A model generated the notes under the pieces. The model did not search any database. It was not told the origin of the DNA and was given only the letters and a program-made list of their open reading frames with translations. A DNA stretch of 64,000 nucleotides from Microcoleus sp. (GTDB lineage: Bacteria > Cyanobacteriota > Cyanobacteriia > Cyanobacteriales > Microcoleaceae). The stretch spans positions 1 through 64,000 of the forward strand of contig JAYFMW010000016.1 of assembly GCA_042408215.1 (NCBI GenBank). Direction: 5' to 3'. The translations under genes and the position numbers were made by a program. Positions 5,509 to 62,071 of the stretch are shown here, in pieces (the stretch's first letter is position 1; every line of letters begins with the position of its first letter).

Positions 5509-7218
5509 GTGAGCCAAGAATTTATACTGTCTGTTACCCCAGTTGGGGATGACGAATATCTAGTGCGGACAGAAAAGGTTGCACCCGGTGTACCCTTAGC
5601 AGAAGAACAAGTCCGCTGGCCGATCGACCAATGGCTTGCCCTGTCGAGTCAACTAATGAACGACCCCTTGCTGGGCGTGCTTCAGGCAAAAGCAGCACAG
5701 GGAAAGGGTTCTGCCAGCAGCGGGTCCTTGCTCGCTGCCAAAAACCCAGCGCCCAATTTAGTGGGTCTCGGTCAAGAACTATACAATGGGCTGTTTCAAG
5801 GCAACTTGCGCGATAGCTGGACTTGCGCTCAAGGCATAGCCCAGCACCGCAGGGAAGCGCTGCAACTGCGGCTGGGACTTAAAGGCAGGTGCTTGCCGCG
5901 GCTGCCGTGGGAAGTGCTGCACGCGGGCGATCGCCCCTTGGCCACCGGCACCGATGTTGTCTTTTCCCGCTATCAACCTGGTACTGGTTTATTCAAACCA
6001 ACCAGGCTACTCCCCAGTACCGGGCCTCTGAAAATTTTAATGGCGATCGCGTCTCCGAGCGATCGAGACAGCTTGCAGTTGATGCGAGAAGTCCGCCACT
6101 TACAACAAGAACTCCAAAACCGCATCGTCAACCCCCTTACTCACAGTCTGCACGCCCCGGAAATTCAACTGACTATTCTCGAACAGCCCGATCGAGAACA
6201 GCTTACCCAAGCCCTAGAACAAGGTAACTATCAAGTGCTGCACTACGCAGGCCACAGCAACTTGGGCCCCAGAGGCGGCGAACTCTACCTAGTCAGCAGC
6301 CGCACAGGCTTAACCGAAACCTTGAGCGGCGACGACTTAGCCGGCTTGCTCGTCAACAACGGCATTCAAATGGCCGTGTTCAACTCCTGCCGTGGCGCCT
6401 ACGGCGACTCCTCAGATCTCGCCCTGGACAGCCGGGAACGTAATTTAACAGAAGCTCTAGTCAAGCGGGGCATTCCGGCAGTGCTAGCAATGGCAGAACG
6501 CATCCCCGACGATGTAGCCCTGACTCTGACACGGCTGTTTTATCGCAACCTCAATCAAGGCTATCCGGTGGATCTCAGCCTGAGTCGAGCCAGGGCCGGA
6601 CTAATTTCTGCCTACGGTTCTCATCAGTTGTACTGGGCTTTGCCCATTCTCTACCAGCACCCCGAATTTGACGGCTATCTGACCGGCAAATCGGCCCAAA
6701 GCGCAGCGGGAGACTCTAGGGTGCAAAATTTCATGGCTACCGGATTGCAGCCGATTGCAGGGGCAGAAGGTCGGGCCCCGAAAGAGCTGGATGGGACTAC
6801 TAAAAATCAGGAATTATCAGTTTATGGCCCAGATCGGCCAGACATTCCTGACGGGAAAGGGGGCGATGATTCCCCGGCTCGGATTCAGGAGCATGATCCA
6901 CTGTCGGGTACCAATTCCCTCATTTCTACTTCTTCACCGAAGGTTGCTTCGGGAAGATCAACTCGCGCTGCTGTACCGCAGGCGAAACCGTTAAAAAAAT
7001 CGGGATTGAAAAAATGTCTGACTGTGACGCTTTGCTTGTTGTCGGTTGCTTTGGGCGCTGGCTTTTTGGGCTGGCGACACAGCCAACAAAAGAGCCCGAA
7101 ACCCGAAGAGTTACTGCCGACGGTACGGAGTCCCTTGTCGCAAAATTACAAACAAACAAAGCCGGTAAATCTCGATCGCACCCCTGACGGATCAGCTAAA
7201 GGCGATCGCTATGACTAA
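5509..7218 (+). CDS. hetF: HetF-like CHAT (caspase-like) domain protein with TM helix, apparently C-terminally shortened
   Basis: N-terminus SQEFILSVTPVGDDEYLVRTEKVAPGVPLAEE typical of HetF; CHAT dyad HYAGH and FNSC. Confidence 0.85.
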   Translation: MSQEFILSVTPVGDDEYLVRTEKVAPGVPLAEEQVRWPIDQWLALSSQLMNDPLLGVLQAKAAQGKGSASSGSLLAAKNPAPNLVGLGQELYNGLFQGNLRDSWTCAQGIAQHRREALQLRLGLKGRCLPRLPWEVLHAGDRPLATGTDVVFSRYQPGTGLFKPTRLLPSTGPLKILMAIASPSDRDSLQLMREVRHLQQELQNRIVNPLTHSLHAPEIQLTILEQPDREQLTQALEQGNYQVLHYAGHSNLGPRGGELYLVSSRTGLTETLSGDDLAGLLVNNGIQMAVFNSCRGAYGDSSDLALDSRERNLTEALVKRGIPAVLAMAERIPDDVALTLTRLFYRNLNQGYPVDLSLSRARAGLISAYGSHQLYWALPILYQHPEFDGYLTGKSAQSAAGDSRVQNFMATGLQPIAGAEGRAPKELDGTTKNQELSVYGPDRPDIPDGKGGDDSPARIQEHDPLSGTNSLISTSSPKVASGRSTRAAVPQAKPLKKSGLKKCLTVTLCLLSVALGAGFLGWRHSQQKSPKPEELLPTVRSPLSQNYKQTKPVNLDRTPDGSAKGDRYD

Positions 7219-7666: not shown

Positions 7667-7727
7667 TTTGTTGTTCCGCATTAATTCCGCATACAATAAG
7701 AGTAAGGCAGAAATGAGGCAAAAGCAA

Positions 7728-8990
7728 ATGTTACTTAGTTTCAAGACGGAATTAAAACCTAACAACAAACAGGTAACTAGATTTCGGCAGCATTGCGGAG
7801 TAGCAAGACACGCTTACAACTGGGCGAATTCAATCATCCTTGAAACATTAAAAATCAGGGAGACGGATCAAAGCGTAAAGATCCCTTCTGCAATTGATCT
7901 ACACAAACGTTTAGTAGCGGAAGTCAAACCTCTGTATCCCTGGTATTACGAATCTTCCAAGGCAAGCCCACAGCAGAGTCTAGCTGAACTGAGGATAGCT
8001 TGGGATAGATGCTTCAAAAAGGTATCTAAACAACCTAGGTTCAAGAAAAAAGGTGTATCAGGTGACTCTTTTTATTTAGAGCAAGGAACCAAAGCAAAGC
8101 CAGGAATTAATAACGACGGCAAGCGCATCAAGTTACCTAAGATTGGTTGGGTTAGGCTGCACGAACCATTACCTATTACGGCGTTCCACAACTGCGTAAT
8201 CAGTCGAAAAGCTGACAGATGGTTTATTGCTTTTAAGTGCGAGATTGAGCAGCCCGCAACTCTACCTAGCCGTCCTACCGTTGGAGTTGATATCGGTATC
8301 AAAGAATTAGCTGTTTGTTCTAACGGCGAAGTCTTTGCCAACCCTAAAGCCTATGGTCGGATGAACCGTAAAATGAAACGTCTACAACGGCGTGTCAGCA
8401 AACGAGTCAAAGGTTCTAATAACCGCAAAAAAGCAGTCTCAAAACTAGCCAAGCTGCACCTAAAAGTATCAAATATCCGAAAAGATGCTATTCACAAGTT
8501 GACAACTTACCTCGCCAAAAACCACAGTGAGGTGAAGATTGAAGATTTGAATGTTAAGGCATTTTTGAAGAACCACAAGTTAGCTGGTGCGATCGCCGAT
8601 TGTGGAATGTATGAATTTCGCCGCCAGTTAGAATACAAAACTGAAAAGTTTTTGTCTAAATTGAGCTTGGTGGATAGATTCTTTCCTAGTAGTCAAATCT
8701 GCTCAAATTGTTGTAATCATCGGCACAGAATGCCCTTAAAACTTCGAGTTTTTGAATGCCCCAACTGTGGAAACATTCAAAATCGCGACCTAAACGCTGC
8801 GAAAAATATAGAACGTTGGTTTGAAGGAATATTTATTCCAGAACGTTCAGAATTGGCGGTGAGTTCCACCGTGTCAGCCTGGGGAGTAGACAAACCCGAT
8901 AGCAGTCATGCTGTCGCTACTGTGAAACAGGAAGTTAACACCACAAGCACTCATGTCCAGATAAGTCTAGATTTGGGTAGCTATGGGTAA
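7728..8990 (+). CDS. tnpB: RNA-guided endonuclease TnpB (IS607-type N-terminus)
   Basis: HTH N-terminus MLLSFKTELKPNN; RuvC GVDIG/IEDL/RDLNAA; Zn finger CSNC..CPNC. Confidence 0.92.
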   Translation: MLLSFKTELKPNNKQVTRFRQHCGVARHAYNWANSIILETLKIRETDQSVKIPSAIDLHKRLVAEVKPLYPWYYESSKASPQQSLAELRIAWDRCFKKVSKQPRFKKKGVSGDSFYLEQGTKAKPGINNDGKRIKLPKIGWVRLHEPLPITAFHNCVISRKADRWFIAFKCEIEQPATLPSRPTVGVDIGIKELAVCSNGEVFANPKAYGRMNRKMKRLQRRVSKRVKGSNNRKKAVSKLAKLHLKVSNIRKDAIHKLTTYLAKNHSEVKIEDLNVKAFLKNHKLAGAIADCGMYEFRRQLEYKTEKFLSKLSLVDRFFPSSQICSNCCNHRHRMPLKLRVFECPNCGNIQNRDLNAAKNIERWFEGIFIPERSELAVSSTVSAWGVDKPDSSHAVATVKQEVNTTSTHVQISLDLGSYG

Positions 8991-15155: not shown

Positions 15156-16403
15156 TTACAGGTTTTCTAGGCAAATATTACACTTGCCTCGGGCAACCAT
15201 TTTGTAAGGTGTGACCCTTACCGGAGGTACTAATACGCCCTGTATTCCCTCAGCAAAAGCGTTGGGAAATGCTTTTTTGACAATGTTAGCGCTGCCATTC
15301 ACATCCGCATTGATCAGTCTGCCATCACCAGCACGAAACAAACCTCGCTTAATTCGTTTACCTTTGTACTCTGAATGCTTGACACAAGGTTCATTATCTA
15401 AAAAAGAACACTTAGAAGTGTAACTTTCTTCAATAACCTTCACAACGATTCCTGCTAACTGCGCTTTATAAGTTAGCATTTCAATAAACCTTGCATGAGG
15501 TATTGCTACGAAGTTCTGATTATTCCGCTTGCCGAGATTTATTCCCTGTTTCCAGTTATCGTTTTTACCAATCACCAGTGTCCCGATGCGGTTAGCTGCC
15601 AGATGATTGACGATGAATCGACTTGCATTATGCAGGTAATTATCTACTTTTACATTACGCTTGTGAGTTAATTGTTCAATTTTGATTGATGTCTTTTTCT
15701 CCCCCTTCAAGTAGGACTGCAACAGTGCCTTTTTTTTGTGATAGTAGGCATTGATTGATTTGAGCGGTTTGCCATTTATTATCAGCGGGACCAACCCTTT
15801 TTGATGGGATGTAATTGTCGCTAAATTATTCAGACCAATATCAATCCCCGCTATCCCTTCAACACCTGATAATGATTGAGTTACATCCTTGGGTTCATAA
15901 ACTACCTCCATCGAGTAATGGTAAGTTTTTGGAACGATTCTGACTTGATTTAATTCGCTAACTTTAGTAGTCAGAAATATGTCGGTCAAAGAGAGATTGA
16001 TGATTCCTTTCTTGAGCCATGCTTTACTGATGGCTTGAGCGGTGTAAGTCAGGACATTTCTGCCTAATGTTTTGTGTTTGTATCTGGGTATTTTGGGTCT
16101 GGCTTTGAATTTATCTGGATGGAGGTTATATTCCTTGGTAGCTGCAAAAAATGATTGCCAGCTTTCATGTAATCTCAATAATACTTGCTGAGATACTTTG
16201 GCTGGTAATGCTAGATAGTCAGTCGTTCCCTGACATAGTTTCTGTATTTTGTAATAGTCGAGGTATTCTCCTGAGCTGATAAATTTTTGTCTGATTAAGT
16301 AGTTAGCGTAGTTGAAAAGATTCTTAGAAAGAAAGCACAAATTGTCTAGCCGCTTGTATAGCCAGTGGTTTCGATCGATAATGTGCTTGGAAACGAGCTG
16401 CAT
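15156..16403 (-). CDS. tnpB: TnpB, MQLV-type with displaced RuvC-II glutamate
   Basis: GIDIGLNN; VIGKN in place of IE; EESYTS; NADVNG; lacks the canonical CxxC-CxxC finger. Confidence 0.9.
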   Translation of the reverse strand: MQLVSKHIIDRNHWLYKRLDNLCFLSKNLFNYANYLIRQKFISSGEYLDYYKIQKLCQGTTDYLALPAKVSQQVLLRLHESWQSFFAATKEYNLHPDKFKARPKIPRYKHKTLGRNVLTYTAQAISKAWLKKGIINLSLTDIFLTTKVSELNQVRIVPKTYHYSMEVVYEPKDVTQSLSGVEGIAGIDIGLNNLATITSHQKGLVPLIINGKPLKSINAYYHKKKALLQSYLKGEKKTSIKIEQLTHKRNVKVDNYLHNASRFIVNHLAANRIGTLVIGKNDNWKQGINLGKRNNQNFVAIPHARFIEMLTYKAQLAGIVVKVIEESYTSKCSFLDNEPCVKHSEYKGKRIKRGLFRAGDGRLINADVNGSANIVKKAFPNAFAEGIQGVLVPPVRVTPYKMVARGKCNICLENL

Positions 16404-18690: not shown

Positions 18691-20037
18691 CACTCCTCGG
18701 CCTGAAGGCACGAGGATTCTTGGATCAGCCAGTCGATTTGCTCGTTGATGTCACCACCAGCGAGTAGAGATCGGTCTGTCCACAAGCGTGAATTTCGGTG
18801 TGTCCCACCGTATTTAAATTAATTTTTGCCTGTTTCAACCCTTTGATTAAAATGTTTTTTGCAGCATTGTAATCGCGATCTAATACCGTACCACACCCAC
18901 AAATATGGGTTCGGGTTGACAGGGTTTTCTTGACTAGATTGCCACAATTTGAACACTCTTGTGACGTGTATTGAGGGGTGACAGCACTTATTATTTTACC
19001 GTATATTTTCCCAAAATACTCCAACCACTGAGCAAATTGTGACCAAGCTGCATCGCTAATTGATTTAGCAAGCTTATGGTTTTTCACCATATTCCTCATC
19101 TGAAGGTTTTCGTAGGCTATGAAATCACTAGATTTCACCGCGCACAACGCCGTCTTTATGGCGAAGTCTTTACGCTGCCGACTAACCTTCAGGTGCTTTC
19201 TTGCTAATTTGTTGATCGCTTTCTTTCGGTTTTTAGAACTTTTCTTTTTCCGGGAAACTCGCTTCTGCAATCTCTTCAGAGCTTTTTCGCTTTTGCGGAG
19301 ATACCGAGGGTTAGCAATCGTTTCACCATCGCTATCAGTATAGAAGTGGTTTAGCCCGACATCTAGTCCAATAACTTTACCAGTAGAAATGGCTTCCTCT
19401 TTCCGCTCCACGTTGATACAGAATTGTGCGTAGTAGCCATCGGCACGACGCACAATTCTGATTCGCTTTATCTCCTGGGGTGCATAAAAATGCAAGTCCC
19501 GACTACCGATTAGTTTGAATTTTCCAGCAGCAAAGCCATCTCTAAATGTCAAGCACCTTTTGTCGGTAGAAAGTTCCCATCCCGAAGTCTTGTACTCAAC
19601 AGAACGGGTATGCTTCTTGAACTGTGGGTAGCCCTTTTTTCCTGGTTTTTTAGCTTTACAATTAGCAAAAAAACGTTGGATAGCAAAAATGGCACGTTCC
19701 GCCGAAGCTTGACGCGCCGTTGAATTAAGTTTGCCCGCCCATTCAAACTCTTTTGCCATAACGGCACACTGTTTGTACAGGTCTACTAATTTAATTCCTT
19801 GATTGTCTATCCAATGCCTAAGAGTTTTGTTTCGGACAAATTGAGCCGTCCGAATCATGTCGTCAATGATCCGATATTGCTCTGCTTTGCCTTTCAATTT
19901 AAACTCTAATACTATCATTGGAATAGTTTATAATTTTTACTAGAACTTTTACTTGCAAATTTGTGTATTTAATAATTCTTCATATTCCTATAATTAAAGC
20001 CGTCCTATAAGGACGGGGCTTTAGACCCAATTTCTTG
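18687..20037 (-). mobile_element. IS605/IS1341-type element carrying only tnpB
   Basis: On the minus strand it follows TTAC, has a left-end hairpin CCGTCC..GGACGG and ends GAATCCTCG..CGAGGAGTGTCAA. Confidence 0.85.
18725..19918 (-). CDS. tnpB: RNA-guided endonuclease TnpB
   Basis: GLDVG/AYENL/RDYNAA RuvC triad; CSNC..CGC finger. Confidence 0.93.
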   Translation of the reverse strand: MIVLEFKLKGKAEQYRIIDDMIRTAQFVRNKTLRHWIDNQGIKLVDLYKQCAVMAKEFEWAGKLNSTARQASAERAIFAIQRFFANCKAKKPGKKGYPQFKKHTRSVEYKTSGWELSTDKRCLTFRDGFAAGKFKLIGSRDLHFYAPQEIKRIRIVRRADGYYAQFCINVERKEEAISTGKVIGLDVGLNHFYTDSDGETIANPRYLRKSEKALKRLQKRVSRKKKSSKNRKKAINKLARKHLKVSRQRKDFAIKTALCAVKSSDFIAYENLQMRNMVKNHKLAKSISDAAWSQFAQWLEYFGKIYGKIISAVTPQYTSQECSNCGNLVKKTLSTRTHICGCGTVLDRDYNAAKNILIKGLKQAKINLNTVGHTEIHACGQTDLYSLVVTSTSKSTG

Positions 20038-24727: not shown

Positions 24728-25510
24728 ATGATTTCTCTCCAAAATCAAATTGTTTTCATTACAGGTGCAAGTAGCGGTATCGGAGCAGCCTGTGCCAAGA
24801 TATTCGCTAGGGGTGGCGCTCAACTAATTTTAGCAGCGCGCCGCATCGAAAAGCTCGATCGACTAGCAAAGGAACTGGTAGAAACCGGATTAATAGCGTC
24901 GGCGAACCAGATTCATTTGCTAGAGTTGGATGTGCGCGATCGCCTAAAAGTCGAAACTGCCCTAAATACACTTCCAGAATCTTGGAAGGCGATCGACATT
25001 CTGATTAACAACGCCGGATTGAGTCGCGGCTTAGACAAACTGCACGAAGGCAACTTTCAAGATTGGGAAGAAATGATTGATACCAATGTGAAAGGCTTGC
25101 TTTACATGACTCGCTACATAGTGCCGGGAATGGTAAATCGAGGTCGGGGTCATGTAGTCAATATTGGCTCCATTGCAGGCCGCCAAACCTATCCCAAAGG
25201 CAATGTTTATTGCGCTTCCAAAGCAGCAGTTAGAGCTATTTCTGAAGGGTTGAAACAAGACCTTTTAGGAACACCTGTCCGGGTGACGGAAATAGAACCA
25301 GGTTTAGTGGAAACAGAATTTAGTAATGTCCGGTTTCACGGCGATGCAGAAAAGGCGAAAAATGTCTATCAAGGATTAACCCCGCTGACACCCGATGATG
25401 TAGCCGATGTCGTGTATTTTTGTGCGACGCGATCGCCCCACGTCAATATTAGCGAAGTCTTGCTAGTGCCGACAGACCAAGCAGGTGCAACTCTCGTTCA
25501 CCGAAAATAG
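24728..25510 (+). CDS. SDR oxidoreductase (YdfG-like)
   Basis: TGASSGIG, NNAG, YCASK, EPGLVETEFS. Confidence 0.9.
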   Translation: MISLQNQIVFITGASSGIGAACAKIFARGGAQLILAARRIEKLDRLAKELVETGLIASANQIHLLELDVRDRLKVETALNTLPESWKAIDILINNAGLSRGLDKLHEGNFQDWEEMIDTNVKGLLYMTRYIVPGMVNRGRGHVVNIGSIAGRQTYPKGNVYCASKAAVRAISEGLKQDLLGTPVRVTEIEPGLVETEFSNVRFHGDAEKAKNVYQGLTPLTPDDVADVVYFCATRSPHVNISEVLLVPTDQAGATLVHRK

Positions 25511-25533: not shown

Positions 25534-27820
25534 TCCGGATTGCGATCGAATTCCCAGGAGACTTAATTGGTAGATGCACCCTGAATAATTAACTCCCGAC
25601 CAATTTTGGCCGGGTTTTTTTTGCCTATTGCAGCCACAACCACAAATTTTGCCAATTTTGCCAAACAGTCCTGAAAGAGGCGTGGAGATACCGGAGACTA
25701 AATTAGTAGATGCACCCTGATTGATTAACTCCCGACCAATTTTGGCCGGGTTTTTTTTGCGTATTGCAGCTAAAACCACAAATTTTGCCAAATTTTGCCA
25801 AACTGTCCTGAAAGAGGCGTGGAGATACCGGATACTAAATTAGTAGATGCACCCTGATTGATTAACTCCCGACCAATTTTGGCCGGGTTTTTTTTGGGCG
25901 ATCGCACTTTCGCCACAAATCCTATCGTTTACGGTTGTTTCGGAATGATTTAACCGCAGAGACTCTTCTAGGGCGCAGAGTCTCCAGAAGAGAGAGATGA
26001 ATCATTCGGATGAAGAGAGGATTTGAGCTCATTCCCAAAATCCACAAATATCCGTGTTAATCTGCGTCATCTGCGGTGAAAAATCCAAACTGTCCTGAAA
26101 GAGGCGTGGAGATACCGGATACTAAATTAGTAGATGCACCCTGATTGATTAACTCCCGACCAATTTTGGTCGGGTTTTTTTTGGGCGATCGCAGCCAAAA
26201 CCAGAAAATAGCACTCTCCCAACAAATATCCGCGTTAATCTGCGATATCTGCGGTGAAAAATCCAAACTGTCCTGAAAGAGGCGTGGAGATACCGGATAC
26301 TAAATTAGTAGATGCACCCTGATTGATTAACTCCCGACCAATTTTGGCCGGGTTTTTTTTGCCTATTACAGCCACAACCACAAATTTTGCCAAATTTTCC
26401 GAAACAGTCCTGAAAGAGGCGTGGAGATACCGGATACTAAATTAGTAGATGCACCCTGATTGATTAACTCCCGACCAATTTTGGCCGGGTTTTTTTTGCC
26501 TATTACAGCCACAACCACAAATTTTGCCAAATTTTCCGAAACAGTCCTGAAAGAGGCGTGGAGATACCGGATACTAAATTAGTAGATGCACCCTGATTGA
26601 TTAACTCCCGACCAATTTTGGCCGGGTTTTTTTTGCCTATTACAGCCACAACCACAAATTTTGCCAAATTTTCCGAAACAGTCCTGAAAGAGGCGTGGAG
26701 ATACCGGATACTAAATTAGTAGATGCACCCTGATTGATTAACTCCCGACCAATTTTGGCCGGGTTTTTTTGGGCGATCGCAGCCAAAACCAGAAAATAGC
26801 ACTCTCCCAACAAATATCCGCGTTAATCTGCGATATCTGCGGTTAAAAATCCAAACTGTCCTGAAAGAGGCGTGGAGATACCGGAGACTAAATTAGTAGA
26901 TGCACCCTGATTGATTAACTCCCGACCAATTTTGGCCGGGTTTTTTTTGCCTATTGCAGCCACAACCACAAATTTTGCCAAATTTTGCCAAACAGTCCTG
27001 AAAGAGGCGTGGAGATACCGGATACTAAATTAGTAGATGCACCCTGATTGATTAACTCCCGACCAATTTTGGCCGGGTTTTTTTTGCCTATTACAGCCAC
27101 AACCACAAATTTTGCCAAATTTTCCGAAACAGTCCTGAAAGAGGCGTGGAGATACCGGATACTAAATTAGTAGATGCACCCTGATTGATTAACTCCCGAC
27201 CAATTTTGGCCGGGTTTTTTTTGCCTATTGCAGCCACAACCACAAATTTTGCCAAATTTTCCGAAACAGTCCTGAAAGAGGCGTGGAGATACCGGATACT
27301 AAATTAGTAGATGCACCCTGATTGATTAACTCCCGACCAATTTTGGCCGGGTTTTTTTTGGGCGATCGCACTTTCGCCACAAATCCTATCGTTTACGGTT
27401 GTTTCGGAATGATTTAACCGCAGAGACTCTTCTAGGGCGCAGAGTCTCCAGAAGAGAGAGATGAATCATTCGGATGAAGAGAGGATTTGAGCTCATTCCC
27501 AAAATCCACAAATATCCGTGTTAATCTGCGTCATCTGCGGTGAAAAATCCAAACTGTCCTGAAAGAGGCGCTGTGGAGGCGGAGACTAACTTAGTAGATG
27601 CACCCTGATTGATTAACTCCCGACCAATTTTGGCCGGGTTTTTTTTGCGTATTACAGCCAAAACCAGAAAATAGCACTCTCCCAACCAATATCCACGTTA
27701 ATCTGCGTCATCTGCGGTTAAAAATCCAAACTGTCCTGAAAGAAGACCTTGAGACTGGAAAGTAAATAAAGATGCACCCTGATGAATCAACCCCAGCCAA
27801 TTTTGGCCGGGGTTTTTTTT
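25534..27820 (+). ncRNA. Tandem array of 14 NsiR1-like sRNA units (promoter-like box, ~55-nt RNA, intrinsic terminator)
   Basis: AGATGCACCCTGA core near 25571, 25707, 25844, 26131, 26309, 26446, 26583, 26720, 26897, 27034, 27171, 27308, 27595, 27769; each followed by a CCCGACCAA-TT-TTGGCCGGG hairpin and T7-8, and preceded ~30 nt upstream by TCCGGA or TCCTGA. Confidence 0.7.
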
Positions 27821-27848
27821 AGATCAAAAGCTGCATTCACCAATTCAG

Positions 27849-28070
27849 CTAAAGCGCCTCAAAAGATTGCACCTCAAGCACTGGCCCGATCATCGCAAAA
27901 GTCATAATGTCCTTACGCACTAAACCTTTGACACGGACTTTCAAACCCTCTTTTTTTAACTCAGAAGGAGCATCCTTAAGTTCATAAGTTTCTCCATCTT
28001 CGCCAACCAAAGCCCAAGTACCAGGGCCGAATCCTTGACGTTCAATTACACCTTTGACAGTAATACTCAT
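27849..28070 (-). CDS. Small conserved hypothetical protein, overlapping the S8 protease stop
   Basis: 73-aa ORF with a 4-bp overlap; beta-rich sequence. Confidence 0.7.
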   Translation of the reverse strand: MSITVKGVIERQGFGPGTWALVGEDGETYELKDAPSELKKEGLKVRVKGLVRKDIMTFAMIGPVLEVQSFEAL

Positions 28071-29836
28071 GCCGATCGCACCTCTGTTTTAATTGCTAAA
28101 CTAGCCAGTCCGAAACACATAAAAGCATTGACAATCAAGAACGTTTGTGCTACCAAACCAGTTCCTAATCCCCAAACACCCGGAGACACAAAAGCATTCA
28201 CCGCTAAACTGCTGGCAAAACCGATCGAAGTTGCGATCGCAATCCACTTCCACTGTTGATGTCCCAACAGCAAAACAATCAAAATCCCAGGAATCAAAAC
28301 GCTAGCAAAAATGGGATTCAGTAAACTACTGCCATTAATTGCGCCACCAAGTTCGGGAAGAGAACTACCCATCACCCGCAGCGGCCACTGCGGCAGGTCA
28401 AATACAAACAGATTTCGCAGGAAAAAGAACCCAGAACTGCCAGCAATCAAGCCGCCGGAAAAGCCCCAAGTCCAGGTGAACGGGAAATAATTCCGCAAAA
28501 AGAAAGCCAGCAGATAGGAACCGAGCACCATTGCAATCTTAGGTAACAGCGCCACAGCACCGCCGTCGATCCAGAAACGGGGACTGAGATAGCCGTTGTC
28601 GCGCAACCAGCGGAAGAAATCGCGGAAGTTGATTTGTCCTCGCTGGGCTAGCTGAACTGCTGCTGCTGCGTCGAGGTTTCCGGCACCAAAATGGTTTAGG
28701 GGATCTTCGCTGACTACTCGCGCCGATTGCAAGAGTACGCTGCGAATGGAGTCTGGTTCTGTGATACCGGAGGCTTTCACCAGCGCAGCAACGGCGGCAA
28801 CGTGGGGAGATGCCATGCTGGTACCTTGGTAGCCTGCAAAAATTTCTGCGCCGGTTTCTGGGTCGATCGTACTTTGGAGAATTTTCCCATTTTCAGAACC
28901 ACCGGGGGCGGAAATGTCAACACCCGGGCCGAAGTTGGAATAACCAGCTTTTTCGTCGTCGGGGCCGAGGGCGGAAACGCCGATGACGTGGGGATAGCGG
29001 GCGGGATAGGAAGCGGAACTTTCGCCAGAATTACCGGCTGCTGCAATGACCACAACGCCTTTACTGTGGGCATAATCGATCGCCTCTTCCATTAACTGAC
29101 TTTCGCCACCGCCGCCGAGACTCATGTTAATCACGTCGGCGCCGTTGTCAGCAGCAAATTTAATTGCTTCGGCGATGTCGGAAACCGTGCCGCCACCGCT
29201 GCTACTTAACACTTTTAGCGGCATTAAAGCTGCTTCGTAAGCGATGCCGGCAACGCCGTAATTGTTGTTAGTTGATTGGGCGACAGTACCGGCGACGTGA
29301 GTGCCGTGGCCGTTGTCGTCGTAGGCTTCGGCGCGATCGTTTACAAAGTCGTATCCCGGTACAAATTTGGTTTCTTTTAAGTCGGCGACGGGAGTAATTC
29401 CCGTGTCAATTATTGCTACTGTTGTGCCGCTGCCTTTTGTTTCATTCCAAGCTGCTTCTACGTTGATGCTACGCAGATTCCACTGCTTGTTATACATGGG
29501 GTCATTGGGAATCTCGAAAGCGTTGTAAACGTAGTTTGGTTCAATGTATTCGGTATCTTTAGCTAAATTTGATTTTTTCAGGGCGTTTAGCAAAGTGCGA
29601 TCGCCCTTGACAACATACACATTATCCCCTTTCGAGAATTCGCTGTTGAGTTGGGGCGCGACTTGGTACTGCTGGGCGATCGCCTCTACTTGTTTAGCAA
29701 TCTGGGCATTACCCACATCTTCGCGGAAATCCAGCACAATTGAGTCATAGGTGCCTCGAACAGCCAGTCCTGGGAAATTAGCAATCGCCCAGCCTAGACC
29801 GATTAAAAATAAGCACAGAAGGAAAAACTTTTTCAT
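28067..29836 (-). CDS. S8 subtilisin-like protease with C-terminal TM domain
   Basis: IIDTG, HGTHVAG, GTSMASPH catalytic triad; hydrophobic C-terminus. Confidence 0.95.
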   Translation of the reverse strand: MKKFFLLCLFLIGLGWAIANFPGLAVRGTYDSIVLDFREDVGNAQIAKQVEAIAQQYQVAPQLNSEFSKGDNVYVVKGDRTLLNALKKSNLAKDTEYIEPNYVYNAFEIPNDPMYNKQWNLRSINVEAAWNETKGSGTTVAIIDTGITPVADLKETKFVPGYDFVNDRAEAYDDNGHGTHVAGTVAQSTNNNYGVAGIAYEAALMPLKVLSSSGGGTVSDIAEAIKFAADNGADVINMSLGGGGESQLMEEAIDYAHSKGVVVIAAAGNSGESSASYPARYPHVIGVSALGPDDEKAGYSNFGPGVDISAPGGSENGKILQSTIDPETGAEIFAGYQGTSMASPHVAAVAALVKASGITEPDSIRSVLLQSARVVSEDPLNHFGAGNLDAAAAVQLAQRGQINFRDFFRWLRDNGYLSPRFWIDGGAVALLPKIAMVLGSYLLAFFLRNYFPFTWTWGFSGGLIAGSSGFFFLRNLFVFDLPQWPLRVMGSSLPELGGAINGSSLLNPIFASVLIPGILIVLLLGHQQWKWIAIATSIGFASSLAVNAFVSPGVWGLGTGLVAQTFLIVNAFMCFGLASLAIKTEVRSA

Positions 29837-36582: not shown

Positions 36583-38016
36583 TCAACTGAGTACAGTTAG
36601 ACCGCAGGCTTCTTTTTCCCTTTTTGCAAGGGCTTTTTTGAGTGACGGAGTTCCCCCGCCACTTTCGTGATTCAGACCAATTCTTTTGATCAGCTTGGCT
36701 GAATTTTCATCTCTATCTAAAGACTCACCACATTGACAAGAATGCCATCGGTCTGACAATTCTTTAGGTGCTTTATTCAGGCAATTCCAACAATGTTGAG
36801 ACGTACCCTTGGGGTCAACAAATAGAACACTTTTGCCTAATTTCCAGGCGACGTATTTAATCACAGTAGCGAACTGACCGTGAGCCGCGTCTAACATTGA
36901 TTTATTCAAACCGCTTTTAGCCGCCTGACCATTTGGCAAATAGACCACATTACCATCTTCAATATCAGTTTTGATTTTCGCACGTCTAGTTAGATTCTTT
37001 ATCCTCAAATCTTCGAGAATCAGAACATCACACTGTTCAAATAATTTCTGTGCGGTTTTGAATTGAAAATCGAGTCTCGCTCTAACTACAAATTGATGAA
37101 GTTTTGAGATTTTATCCTTGATGATTTTCCCAGGTTTAGAGCCTTTAACTCTTTTCGCTAATTTGGCTTGAAGTCTTGCTAAATTCTCGGCAGACTTTCT
37201 TAAGAACCTAGGGTTTTCGACAAGTTCACCATTAGATAAATAGACATAATTTGTGATTCCCAAATCAATACCAATACTATTCTTTTCGGTCGGTTGAATT
37301 TCTACAACCGATACGGTCACTGTTTTATCTTCTAGCGTCAGGGAAATATACCATCCGTCTGCTTCTCTGATAACTGTACCAGTCTTAACCTTAAATCCTG
37401 TTGGTATTGAACGATGGAACACCATCGGCACTTGACCTATTTTTGCCAGGTCAATACAAATCCGATTTTGCTCATCTTTGATAATGTTTAAATTATCAAG
37501 TTGTGGATAGGTGAAAGATTTGTAGTAGTGGAAACCTTTAAACCGAGGTTTGCCCCTACGATTACCATTCTTGTCGGGTGTCGTAAAATTTGAGAAAGAA
37601 GTTTCCACCCTGTTAACTACATCCTGTAAAACTTGGGAATCCAAGTTCTTGTATTCAGGAAATAAATTTTTGGTGTTTTTCAAGTCAGCTAACTGTACGT
37701 TCAACCATTGTACATATCCGCCGTCAATGTTTGAAAAAACATCCCCTTTTTGAGTTATGGGATTACCAGATTCATCCTTCTTTCTACCGTCTCTAGTTTG
37801 TATCCTAGTTAGAGGAATATTCTTGTAAATTTCCTCAATGGGGACTATCGACGCAGTTAAAGGACAGGAATTGATAGGTGTTCTAGTTGATTCCCACCAG
37901 TTGAATCTTTCTCCCAATCGGTAATTATATTGTCTTCGGCAAAGTTCTAAATGAGCCGATATCGTTACCAGTTGAGATTTCGTTGGTTTCAGTTTATATT
38001 TGTACGTCAGTTGCAT
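36583..38016 (-). CDS. tnpB: RNA-guided endonuclease TnpB (long, 477 aa)
   Basis: YKYKLKPT HTH; GIDLG/LEDL/RDENSA; CWNC..C.C; end hairpins near 36565-36610 and 38145-38185. Confidence 0.92.
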   Translation of the reverse strand: MQLTYKYKLKPTKSQLVTISAHLELCRRQYNYRLGERFNWWESTRTPINSCPLTASIVPIEEIYKNIPLTRIQTRDGRKKDESGNPITQKGDVFSNIDGGYVQWLNVQLADLKNTKNLFPEYKNLDSQVLQDVVNRVETSFSNFTTPDKNGNRRGKPRFKGFHYYKSFTYPQLDNLNIIKDEQNRICIDLAKIGQVPMVFHRSIPTGFKVKTGTVIREADGWYISLTLEDKTVTVSVVEIQPTEKNSIGIDLGITNYVYLSNGELVENPRFLRKSAENLARLQAKLAKRVKGSKPGKIIKDKISKLHQFVVRARLDFQFKTAQKLFEQCDVLILEDLRIKNLTRRAKIKTDIEDGNVVYLPNGQAAKSGLNKSMLDAAHGQFATVIKYVAWKLGKSVLFVDPKGTSQHCWNCLNKAPKELSDRWHSCQCGESLDRDENSAKLIKRIGLNHESGGGTPSLKKALAKREKEACGLTVLS

Positions 38017-38493: not shown

Positions 38494-38853
38494 CTAGCTA
38501 ATCGCTACCTGCACGCGATCGCCTGCAACCCGAACCGCAAAAGTTGGAATCTTTACCGTTTCATCATCCAGACATTCCCCGGTAATCAGGCTAAAATTTT
38601 GCTTGTAAATAGGAGAAGCAACTTTGAGAGTGCCGTTGCGATCGCCCACAAGTCCCCGCGACAACACAAAAGCCTTACTAAACGGCTCGTAATTGCTCAG
38701 AGCATAAACTTCATCCCCATTTCCCACCCGGAAAATCGCCACTTGTGCGCCCGCTACTAAAGCGCAAACTCCTGTATTGGGGGCGATCGCATCGAGGGAA
38801 CATACATCTACCCAAGTTGTTACTGTATCGCAAACTGGTAATGATTGAATCAT
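38494..38853 (-). CDS. nirD: Nitrite reductase (NADH) small subunit
   Basis: QVAIFR, VLSRGLVGD, VASPIYKQNFSL.TGECL. Confidence 0.93.
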   Translation of the reverse strand: MIQSLPVCDTVTTWVDVCSLDAIAPNTGVCALVAGAQVAIFRVGNGDEVYALSNYEPFSKAFVLSRGLVGDRNGTLKVASPIYKQNFSLITGECLDDETVKIPTFAVRVAGDRVQVAIS

Positions 38854-39086
38854 GTTTTTTTCCTATTAATTTACTTCAATCTAGTGGGAGGGTAGGCACG
38901 GGGAGTAGGGGTCGCACTACCCCTACAAAAGCCTGGTTTTCCTGAGAATGAAACAGCCCTGCCTGATTAAGCGGGGTTATAGCAAGGGTGTTTCATTCTC
39001 TTCTAGGAGAAGCCCCCCGTGACTGCCCCAATTCCTGAAACACCTGTAGGGGCAATCCCCCCGTGGTTGCCCTCGTGGCTGGGGGG

Positions 39087-41651
39087 TTATTCCGAAACTC
39101 CAACCAGAGATTTTTCATATTCATAAGCCGGCCGCATTTGTCCCCGTTCCGCAACACGAACAATACTCGGATCTGGCAAATCGGAATTCACAAAATGCTG
39201 GAACCGCTGCACCTTTTGCGGGTCTTCAATCGTCGTTTTCCACTCACATTGATAAGTATCCACCAAATGCTCCATCTGCGCTTCCAACTCAGCACAAATG
39301 CCTAGAGAATCCTCAATAATCACCTGCTTCAAGTATTCAATGCCCCCCTCAAGTTTATTAAACCAAGTAGCAGTGCGTTCCAGGCGATCGGCAGTGCGGA
39401 TATAGAAAATCAAAAAGCGATCGACATACTTAATCAAAGTTTCCTTATCAATATCCGTCGCCAGCAAAACCGCGTGCTGCGGCTTCATACCACCATTACC
39501 ACACACATACAAATTCCAACCATTCTCCGTCGCAATTATCCCAAAATCCTTACTTTGAGCTTCCGCACATTCGCGAGTGCAACCAGAGACAGCAGACTTG
39601 AATTTGTGAGGAGCACGCAAACCACGATAGCGCAATTCAACCTCGATCGCCAAACTCGTAGAATCCTGCACCCCAAAACGACACCAGGTGCTACCAACAC
39701 AAGATTTTACAGTACGCAAAGCCTTACCATAAGCGTGTCCAGACTCAAATCCCGCATCAATCAACCGACGCCAAATATGCGGCAACTGATCCACACGAGC
39801 CCCAAACAAATCAATCCGCTGCGCGCCAGTAATCTTAGTATAAAGTCCAAATTCCTTAGCAACTTCCCCCAAAACAATCAACTTATCGGGAGTAATTTCT
39901 CCCCCCGGCACTCGCGGCACCACCGAATAAGTACCATCCCGTTGAATGTTAGCCAAAAAGTAATCATTCGTATCTTGCAAACCGACATGAGACTTCTCTA
40001 AAATATGCTCATTCCAAGTAGAAGCCAACATCGAAGCAACAGCAGGCTTGCAAATTTCGCAGCCCTTACCTTTGCCATGTTTTGCGATCGCCTCCTCAAA
40101 GGTTTTGATGCTTTGAGATCGCACTAAATGATACAATTCTTGACGGGAATATTCAAAATGTTCGCAGAGGTGATTTTTCACTGCAAACCCGGCTTTCTTC
40201 ATCTCCGACTTGAAGATATCCGTCACCAAAGGCACGCAGCCACCGCAGCCAGTACCAGCTTGGGTGCATTTCTTGACGCTGGCGACATCAGTTAAATTGC
40301 GATCGCGAATAGCGGCACAAATCTGCCCTTTAGTCACATTATTGCAAGAACAAATTTGAGCAGAATCCGGCAAACTATCCACTCCCAAACCAACAGGTGA
40401 TCCGCCCGATCGCGGTGGCATCAACAAATCTTCAGGATGAGGAGGCAGAGCAATTTCATTTTGCATAAATTGCAACAAAGTGCCGTAAGCAGAAGCATCT
40501 CCCACGAGAATTCCGCCTAAAATCCGGCTACCATCTTGATTCAAAACTAATTTTTTGTAAATACCTTGGAAGGTATCAGCAACAACAATTTCTTTAGCAT
40601 TAGCCGACTTAGCAAAAGCATCTCCAAAACTAGCAACATCCACCCCCAAAAGTTTGAGTTTAGTGGACATATCCGCACCAGTAAAAGTGCTTGTATCCCC
40701 CGCATCTTCACCGCCATCGGCTGCACTGCTTAAAAGATCCGCTGCTACTCCAGCCATTGTATAACCCGGAGCAACTAAGCCGTAAATCCGATTTTGATAA
40801 AGCGCGCATTCTCCGATCGCATAAATGTCAGAATCAGATGTTTGGCAACTATCATTAATGACAATACCACCACGTTCTCCTACTTCGATACCACAACTTC
40901 TCGCAATTTCATCACGAGGGCGAATCCCAGCCGAAAACACAATCATATCTGTTGCCAATTCCGAACCATCAGCAAACAGCATTTTAGCAACTTTGCCATC
41001 TTCGCTAACAATTTCGGTAGTAGACTTACTGGTATGAACCGAAACTCCCAACTCTTCTATTTTGCTACGGAGAATCGCACCGCCAGCCTCATCAACTTGT
41101 ACTGGCATCAGTCGTGGCGCAAACTCAACTACATGAGTTTTCAAACCCATATTTTGCAGAGCATTCGCACATTCTAAGCCCAACAAACCGCCGCCGATTA
41201 CTACGCCAACTTGGCAATTTTTAGCGTAATCTGACATCGCTTCCAAGTCATCAATTGTCCGATAAACAAAAGTACCCTGAGCATCTTTGCCTTTAATTGA
41301 CGGTACAAATGGATAGGAACCGGTGGCTAGAACAATTTTGTCATAGGGAACTTCTAAACCATTGGCTGAAGAGACTGTTTTTTGTTCCCGATCGATCGCA
41401 ACTGCTTTGTCGCCGATGTGAATCTTAATCTCATTTTCTTGATAAAAGCCCGGTGCAACTAGAGATAAATCTCCCGCTGTTTTGCCAGAGAAAAAGCCGC
41501 TGAGGTTTACGCGATCGTAAGCAACGCGCGCTTCTTCGCAGAAAGTAATTAAATTCCAGTGTTCCGCCGCTCCTTTAGCAACCATTAACTCTAAGAACTT
41601 GTGGCCCACCATGCCATTGCCGATTACAACGAGGTTTTTTTTTGCTGTCAT
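39087..41651 (-). CDS. nirB: Nitrite reductase (NADH) large subunit
   Basis: GNGMVG FAD motif, GGGLLGLE, BFD-like CSC/GCGGC, KSCVGSTWCR, SGCTRECA. Confidence 0.96.
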   Translation of the reverse strand: MTAKKNLVVIGNGMVGHKFLELMVAKGAAEHWNLITFCEEARVAYDRVNLSGFFSGKTAGDLSLVAPGFYQENEIKIHIGDKAVAIDREQKTVSSANGLEVPYDKIVLATGSYPFVPSIKGKDAQGTFVYRTIDDLEAMSDYAKNCQVGVVIGGGLLGLECANALQNMGLKTHVVEFAPRLMPVQVDEAGGAILRSKIEELGVSVHTSKSTTEIVSEDGKVAKMLFADGSELATDMIVFSAGIRPRDEIARSCGIEVGERGGIVINDSCQTSDSDIYAIGECALYQNRIYGLVAPGYTMAGVAADLLSSAADGGEDAGDTSTFTGADMSTKLKLLGVDVASFGDAFAKSANAKEIVVADTFQGIYKKLVLNQDGSRILGGILVGDASAYGTLLQFMQNEIALPPHPEDLLMPPRSGGSPVGLGVDSLPDSAQICSCNNVTKGQICAAIRDRNLTDVASVKKCTQAGTGCGGCVPLVTDIFKSEMKKAGFAVKNHLCEHFEYSRQELYHLVRSQSIKTFEEAIAKHGKGKGCEICKPAVASMLASTWNEHILEKSHVGLQDTNDYFLANIQRDGTYSVVPRVPGGEITPDKLIVLGEVAKEFGLYTKITGAQRIDLFGARVDQLPHIWRRLIDAGFESGHAYGKALRTVKSCVGSTWCRFGVQDSTSLAIEVELRYRGLRAPHKFKSAVSGCTRECAEAQSKDFGIIATENGWNLYVCGNGGMKPQHAVLLATDIDKETLIKYVDRFLIFYIRTADRLERTATWFNKLEGGIEYLKQVIIEDSLGICAELEAQMEHLVDTYQCEWKTTIEDPQKVQRFQHFVNSDLPDPSIVRVAERGQMRPAYEYEKSLVGVSE

Positions 41652-61997: not shown

Positions 61998-62071
61998 TGG
62001 GCTTGGAGGGATTCGAACCCCCGACCTCATGGTTCGTAGCCATGCACTCTATCCAACTAAGCTACAAGCCC
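61998..62071 (-). tRNA. tRNA-Arg(ACG)
   Basis: GGGCTTG acceptor stem, CATGG-CTACGAA-CCATG anticodon arm, GGTTCGAATC T-loop. Confidence 0.97.

Follow-up and report, generated by a model that had tools for sequence, protein, structure and literature searches.

A 14-copy NsiR1 array with predicted sigma-HetZ promoters in a Microcoleus-type cyanobacterium, and patU as a candidate target

Nostoc-type NsiR1 responds to nitrogen step-down with cell-specific, HetR/NtcA-dependent induction. In Nostoc/Anabaena sp. PCC 7120, NsiR1 is encoded by 12 tandem copies upstream of hetF; repression by the RNA involves base pairing across a start region, and pairing with the hetP-like alr3234 mRNA and the hetF mRNA was shown experimentally (PMC9045159). 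A review still calls NsiR1 a trait of heterocyst formers (PMC6596454). Of 89 genomes, 38 were listed as having BLASTn homologs; 27 of these are heterocystous and 11 are not, among the latter Tric_IMS101, Arthro_8005, Oscill_7112 and Micro_FGP-2 (Table S3, PMC4734099). The surprise that a sequence-only reading of the present locus had attached to a non-heterocystous NsiR1 was therefore overstated. In Limnospira indica PCC 8005, expression of the NsiR1-like RNA162 (57 nt) was measured (PMC8400943). The array described here, RNA162 and these homologs all represent NsiR1 in non-heterocystous filaments; the sections of the two papers drawn on here (PMC8400943, PMC4734099) describe no arrays, promoters, hetZ co-distribution or targets for such hosts.

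The DIF1 motif was identified as the –35 element of promoters of the sigma factor HetZ, followed after a 16–17-nt spacer by a –10 element with G–12 and A–10; in the –35 hexamer TCCGGA, positions T–35, G–32 and A–30 are replaceable, and PatU3 is the likely anti-sigma factor of HetZ (PMC13342950). PatU3 inhibits HetZ and cell division and is cleaved by HetF (PMC9457339). The sequence-only reading had taken TCCGGA for a HetR-dependent motif; as the –35 of sigma-HetZ it depends on HetR only indirectly, not directly (PMC13342950). The promoter elements of our locus match those of the Anabaena sigma-HetZ/PatU3/HetF circuit, and the host has hetZ, hetZ', a gene at the patU position, hetR, patX and hetF. 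NsiR1 goes unmentioned in the main text of the paper on that circuit (PMC13342950), and the RNA arm directed at patU is a proposal made here only.

With NsiR1 of Nostoc PCC 7120 the locus shares the 5' seed, a length of about 55–60 nt, the terminator and a DIF1 promoter for each copy, as well as a tandem arrangement in which central copies are identical and peripheral copies diverged. Unlike Nostoc, the host has neither nitrogenase nor a heterocyst glycolipid synthase. The hetF leader lacks an antisense copy, TCCTGA and –10 elements of the CGGA/GGAA type are found in 13 of the 14 promoters, and the sole hetP-family gene is without a good pairing site. Among titles and abstracts we found none on Microcoleus NsiR1 arrays, on co-distribution with hetZ or on patU as a target, although target lists and supplements of earlier papers may include non-heterocystous copies, the HetR-box class or patU. 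The RNA family and its presence beyond heterocyst formers were already known; new here are the co-distribution of NsiR1 with hetZ and the candidate target patU.

Array units and their promoters

The window, that is, the whole stretch of 64,000 nucleotides analysed, contains 14 head-to-tail copies of a 51-nt core on the + strand, at 25572–27820 (Table 1). Core identity is 94–100% among copies 1–13 and 78% for copy 14. The cores follow each other at 136, 137, 287, 178, 137, 137, 137, 177, 137, 137, 137, 287 and 174 nt; the copy number of the sequence-only reading was thus right, while its 137-bp base period fits eight of the 13 spacings (136–137 nt), the others (174–287 nt) resulting from inserted spacer DNA. 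The array has a higher-order period of 451 nt, and its two 287-nt steps are identical to each other, which points to unequal crossing-over. Inside these steps lies a dispersed repeat (25896–26090 and 27360–27555) with 157 blastn matches elsewhere in the host genome. A protein-coding repeat was considered and rejected, the open reading frames across the units being short and frame-accidental.

Table 1. Features in and around the array, with positions in the window; RNA ends are predicted.
Feature	Position	Strand	RNA	Remarks
hetF homolog	5509–7218	+		CHAT protease, 569 aa, ends past membrane segment; NF045509 631.6 bits
TnpB gene, IS605 family	7668–8990
TnpB gene, IS605 family	15156–16403
TnpB gene, IS605 family	18725–19918
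Short-chain dehydrogenase gene	24728–25510	+		Upstream flank; adjoins array in 9/13 congener loci
Unit 1	25534–25622	+	25568–25622	–35 TCCGGA at 25534, 16-nt spacer, –10 nGnA; Rfam 45.6 bits
Unit 2	25669–25758	+	25704–25758	–35 TCCTGA, 17-nt spacer, –10 CGGA; Rfam 45.2 bits
Unit 3	25806–25895	+	25841–25895	Rfam match and promoter pattern
Unit 4	26093–26183	+	26128–26183	Rfam 49.5 bits; sole unit with perfectly paired terminator stem
Unit 5	26271–26360	+	26306–26360	Rfam match and promoter pattern
Unit 6	26408–26497	+	26443–26497	Rfam match and promoter pattern
Unit 7	26545–26634	+	26580–26634	Rfam match and promoter pattern
Unit 8	26682–26771	+	26717–26771	T7 run; Rfam 42.1 bits
Unit 9	26859–26948	+	26894–26948	Rfam match and promoter pattern
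Unit 10	26996–27085	+	27031–27085	Rfam match and promoter pattern
Unit 11	27133–27222	+	27168–27222	Rfam match and promoter pattern
Unit 12	27270–27359	+	27305–27359	Rfam match and promoter pattern
Unit 13	27557–27646	+	27592–27646	Rfam match and promoter pattern
Unit 14	27734–27821	+		5' end diverged; 38.2 bits, just below Rfam cut-off
73-aa ORF	27849–28070	–		Convergent downstream flank; without NCBIfam family
S8 peptidase with DUF5942	28067–29836	–		Convergent flank, 13/13 congener loci; also G156, G255
TnpB gene, IS605 family	36583–38016
nirB and Rieske small subunit	38494–41651			NADH-type nitrite reductase
tRNA gene	61998–62071	–

Membership in NsiR1 was judged by the Rfam covariance model RF02399 with its gathering cut-off of 39 bits. 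Thirteen of the 14 units passed (42.1–49.5 bits), and unit 14, which is without the (A/G)GT 5' end, scored just under the cut-off (E 6.7e-6), so that the homology proposed from sequence alone withstood the model check. Four units were folded, and each centroid structure shows a hairpin ahead of the U-run. The stem carries an A–C mismatch in most units, a simple terminator scan of the + strand found one unit of 14 (unit 4), and for three of the four folded units the stability was no better than, or just about 2 SD beyond, that of shuffled sequences. The core as originally described is thus accurate for 13 units, but not for the 5' end of unit 14, nor does it mention the mismatch of most hairpins. 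The 5' seed (nt 3–18) has a mean unpaired probability of 0.74 over 237 NsiR1 copies, and a largely unpaired seed fits the expectation for a pairing RNA. Judged by covariance model and gene content, the array is a genuine Rfam NsiR1 member in a variant setting, without hetF linkage and without heterocysts.

TCCGGA precedes the core of unit 1 and TCCTGA those of units 2–14, as had been reported before, and in 14/14 units nGnA follows after 16 or 17 nt. The hexamer starts 38–39 nt before the AGATG of the core (36 nt in unit 14). With a bipartite promoter in every unit and a hairpin and U-run in the four folded ones, the earlier description of self-contained transcription units holds. Assembled contigs from four of the 21 listed metatranscriptome runs cover the array in patches. 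The pattern extends to the congeners: across 13 loci, 101 of 103 distinct copies have a DIF1 hexamer (at most one mismatch), and all 101 of these have nGnA at a 16/17-nt spacer, with 12.8 expected from other offsets. Among the matches listed, 83 of the 84 DIF1 copies of named genomes show the same bipartite pattern (6.3 expected). No sigma-70 promoters were found within the array, compared to 3.7 in shuffled sequences. The array promoters have the elements described for sigma-HetZ, and hetZ is present in the host genome; at –11, G prevails among the units, and the part of PMC13342950 used here does not count it as a tolerated base. Based on these motifs, transcription of the units by sigma-HetZ is highly likely.

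A second promoter class became apparent in a pattern scan that gave at least 80 loci, found, beside Nostocales, in Microcoleus, Symploca, Trichodesmium, Nodosilinea, Leptothoe, Chamaesiphon, Waterburya and others. A match in Clostridia (L060) was discarded as a chance hit without promoter and without hairpin. Among the loci listed, 85 of 135 copies have the DIF1 hexamer (3.7 expected) and 44 (0.4 expected) have a GGG-N5-CCC box, whose start is mostly at –38, two having both and eight neither; GGG-N5-CCC is the HetR requirement (PMC4192349). A TAnnnT –10 element is present in 39 of 41 box-type copies among these loci. The host genome contains three single box-type copies (C3:390947–391040, C20:703066–703165 and C28:170298–170394, – strand), in which a HetR-type palindrome lies over the –35 position and is followed by a TAnnnT –10, and also two more DIF1-type single copies (C6:355634 and C6:78703). 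Tandem HetR-box arrays occur as well, with seven copies in Scytonema sp. HK-05 (L088), four each at L078 and L109 and three at L075; going by these predicted promoters, both classes form arrays. A fourth exact HetR-type palindrome of the host genome is located at C6:184529–184541, 123 nt upstream of patX, and hetR is preceded, at a distance of 1.5 kb, by a second small RGSGR ORF that shows a TCCTGA promoter pattern.

Host genome, neighbourhood and distribution

The host genome (7.36 Mb, 99.98% complete), with the window on its contig C16, contains hetR, hetZ, hetZ' and patX, all over their cut-offs, and one HetP-family gene. In this genome nifD was absent, neither nifH nor a PfaA/HglE-type synthase gave a match over its cut-off, and the only two PF00148 matches have the size expected for ChlB/ChlN. 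By blastn, the best five named NsiR1 loci among the matches listed belong to Microcoleus (four) and Lyngbya (one), and the units of the Microcoleus sp. N9_A2 array are near-identical to those of the host. Most likely, the host is a non-diazotrophic filament of the Microcoleus type, in line with the non-heterocystous host assumed in the sequence-only reading.

The hetF homolog matched NF045509 over aa 1–401, below the cut-off of 1200 bits. It ends 18.3 kb upstream of the array on the same strand, which agrees with the earlier statement that the two are unlinked; therefore, the cis-antisense action on hetF known from Nostoc cannot operate here. Three of the four TnpB genes sit between hetF and the array. 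No NsiR1 core was found within 1.4 kb upstream of hetF in the 11 loci of the genus, including that of the host; a divergent core lies upstream of hetF in genomes G265, G232, G281 and G156. The convergent S8/DUF5942 gene is the neighbour in G255 and G156 too, and the array is therefore probably a positional ortholog of the Nostoc NsiR1 locus that was cut off from hetF. In nine of the 11 genus loci HetF ends soon past the membrane segment (554–569 aa), at differing stop positions, while full-length proteins have 773–774 aa in G009 and G012 and 812–832 aa in other families. On the evidence of the predicted proteins, the periplasmic TPR part of HetF has been lost lineage-wide. The CHAT domain alone complements in Anabaena (PMC9457339).

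NsiR1 exceeded the cut-off in 60 of 60 genomes of the genus and in 100 of 100 genomes of the family (15 genera), with 2–19 Rfam matches per genome. The earlier notion of a circuit 'tuned by copy number' finds no support. At the same locus, 13 congeners have arrays of 6–10 copies, and the homologous locus has one copy in G073 and 12 in G108. Taken alone, the array is ordinary for its genus.

The survey of the class was one draw of 150 genomes, near all-or-none by family and thus equal to far fewer than 150 independent tests; in it, the hetZ family was found in 84 genomes, NsiR1 in 83, hetR in 82 and nifD in 47. NsiR1 was present in 83 of the 84 genomes with a hetZ-family gene and in none of the 66 without, as compared to 81 of the 82 with hetR; the two NsiR1 genomes without hetR (G136, 93% complete, and G140, 99%) carry hetZ-family genes. 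Only 30 of the 83 NsiR1 genomes of the draw have nifD, and 17 nifD genomes are without NsiR1 (compared by hand). NsiR1 hence goes with hetZ more tightly than with hetR, and not with nitrogen fixation.

The hetZ–patU junction

When 20 hetZ and 20 hetR loci were scanned for complements of the seed, a single site recurred, located at the 3' terminus of hetZ; no conserved site was found upstream of the 20 hetR genes. Here the hetZ stop codon and the start of the following gene overlap; we take this gene as patU on account of its position after hetZ and of homology, the Pfam and NCBIfam models giving no match. The junction has an invariant TCCGGA-N17-TGAA in 68 of 81 hetZ loci (C6:279387–279415 in the host), a sigma-HetZ promoter pattern whose –10 element overlaps the patU ATG. 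A transcript from this promoter would start past the ATG and could yield an N-terminally shortened, PatU3-sized product; the next Met of host patU is near residue 78.

Weighted by family, the consensus sequence of the 17-nt spacer forms a duplex of –23.1 kcal/mol with nt 2–17 of the seed, which none of 3000 shuffled seeds equalled, and the family-mean patU duplex is –12.7 vs. –6.9 kcal/mol (0/400). The candidate comes with a reservation: in the host the patU site ranked fourth of 5249 ORFs (–19.1 kcal/mol) in a window of –22 to +4 that was chosen after seeing the site, while in the first, wider scan (24-nt seed, –45 to +25) patU reached –20.9 and stayed outside the top 30. All 41 host-family genomes searched have the junction, and in 38 of the 40 that were fetched (14 genera) the duplex is –15 or stronger. 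Synonymous recoding shifted the family mean from –18.3 to –11.1, under a null that treats related genomes as independent. The Ala codon of the site ends in A (0.92) or G (0.08) in this family and never in C or T, and A and G both pair with the seed U; none of 16 Ala columns of the hetZ body is equally biased, and only 1.4% of its 70 four-fold columns are limited to purines or pyrimidines. In the family of G232, which we infer to be heterocyst formers, the exact 10-nt complement GTGCATCTAC is present in 34 of 47 junctions and missing from 13, seven of these through the pairing-breaking Ala codons GCT/GCC (counts by eye).

Class-wide, only 19 of 68 genomes (10 of 18 families) reach –15 at the patU site, and five families (f3, f9, f16, f17 and f33) average –6 to –10, yet carry NsiR1. 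The sequence of the patU site could also be constrained by any of three other roles, as Shine-Dalgarno region, promoter spacer and end of the hetZ coding sequence, and 8.5 kcal/mol are needed to open the site in naked mRNA. Weighing pairing and codon usage against these points, we put patU forward as a real target of NsiR1 only tentatively. No conserved site was found at hetF, patX, hetZ' or the hetP-family gene of the host genome; the duplex of hetF is –13.4 kcal/mol, and that of the sole HetP-family gene, at –12.5, is close to the genome average (–12.2). Seed-complement 8-mers were not enriched in host start regions (28 vs. 24 ± 15). The best hits of the wide-window target scan were a stretch overlapping a further NsiR1 copy in antisense and genes for a CHAD protein, a transposase-like product and an S8/SH3 peptidase. 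The host S8 peptidase/SH3/C39 gene at C29:143928 (– strand; L155:1262–4429) has a predicted 15-bp NsiR1 duplex just before its start codon.

Putative function and alternative explanations

We propose that the array comprises 14 NsiR1 genes driven by sigma-HetZ, whose trans-acting RNA would belong to a pre-heterocyst HetR–HetZ–PatU–PatX circuit with patU as its best candidate target; motifs and conservation make this reading fairly probable. Each unit would be transcribed from its own sigma-HetZ promoter into an RNA of about 55 nt that ends at its own hairpin and U-run and exposes an unpaired, invariant 5' seed. Pairing in trans over ribosome-binding regions would make NsiR1 a translational repressor, and base-pairing repression as such is a likely mode of action. 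As PatU3 inhibits HetZ, repression of patU would form a positive loop: sigma-HetZ makes NsiR1, less PatU would be synthesized, and more sigma-HetZ would be freed. The second promoter class, with its HetR box over the –35, might feed the same seed from a HetR-controlled input. The broadest version, that NsiR1 is the pre-heterocyst core of the sigma-HetZ switch and blocks PatU translation in heterocystous and non-heterocystous filaments alike, is conceivable but doubtful.

The invariant seed could instead be a protein-binding site, through which NsiR1 binds or titrates an RNA-binding protein such as PatR, with many copies providing the dose. CLIP-seq with PatR recovered NsiR1 in Nostoc (PMC11797042), families whose patU site pairs poorly likewise keep the seed unchanged, and the hetR, hetF and hetP-family genes offered no other conserved mRNA site. 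This explanation is unlikely, however, given the pairing demonstrated in Nostoc for alr3234 and hetF mRNA (PMC9045159) and the occurrence of PatR homologs in all types of cyanobacteria (PMC11797042), whereas NsiR1 is confined to hetZ genomes. The 14 promoters might also serve as a decoy, as so many bipartite elements within 2.3 kb could soak up sigma-HetZ, the RNA being incidental. A decoy has no need of the same seed behind HetR-box/TAnnnT promoters, as seen in 44 of the 135 copies among the loci listed, and NsiR1 has shown targets in Nostoc (PMC9045159), which makes a decoy very improbable.

A further explanation accepts NsiR1 as functional but regards the 14-fold array as neutral turnover by unequal crossing-over, or partly as a matter of assembly, with copy number untuned. 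The 451-nt period with its identical 287-nt steps would be expected from such turnover, as would copy numbers that vary among the congeners, between G073 and G108 and across the family. On the other hand, all 101 DIF1-bearing congener copies retain the two promoter elements despite a variable intervening spacer, so that each copy seems to be under selection for transcription, and arrays are found elsewhere too, at other loci and with HetR-box promoters; we regard neutral turnover as possible, though rather improbable. Finally, the host might be a heterocyst former or diazotroph and the array an ordinary Nostoc locus, as the presence of hetR, hetZ, patX, hetF and a hetP-family gene could suggest. 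In a genome of this completeness, the results for nifD, nifH, PfaA/HglE-type synthase and PF00148, and the Microcoleus and Lyngbya loci closest among the matches listed, reduce this to a negligible chance. The proposed trans-acting NsiR1 of the HetR–HetZ–PatU–PatX circuit is the reading we retain.

The role of HetR and HetZ in filaments without heterocysts was stated as an open question (PMC11298460). NsiR1, with its predicted sigma-HetZ promoter and its presence in nearly every hetZ genome searched, offers a reporter of when, and in which cells, this circuit fires. If NsiR1 represses patU, this would explain why the seed is invariant and why NsiR1 appears early. If NsiR1 indeed formed the core of the switch, an RNA arm would be added to the core circuit, and NsiR1 could mark cell states of a hidden differentiation in filaments of the Microcoleus type.
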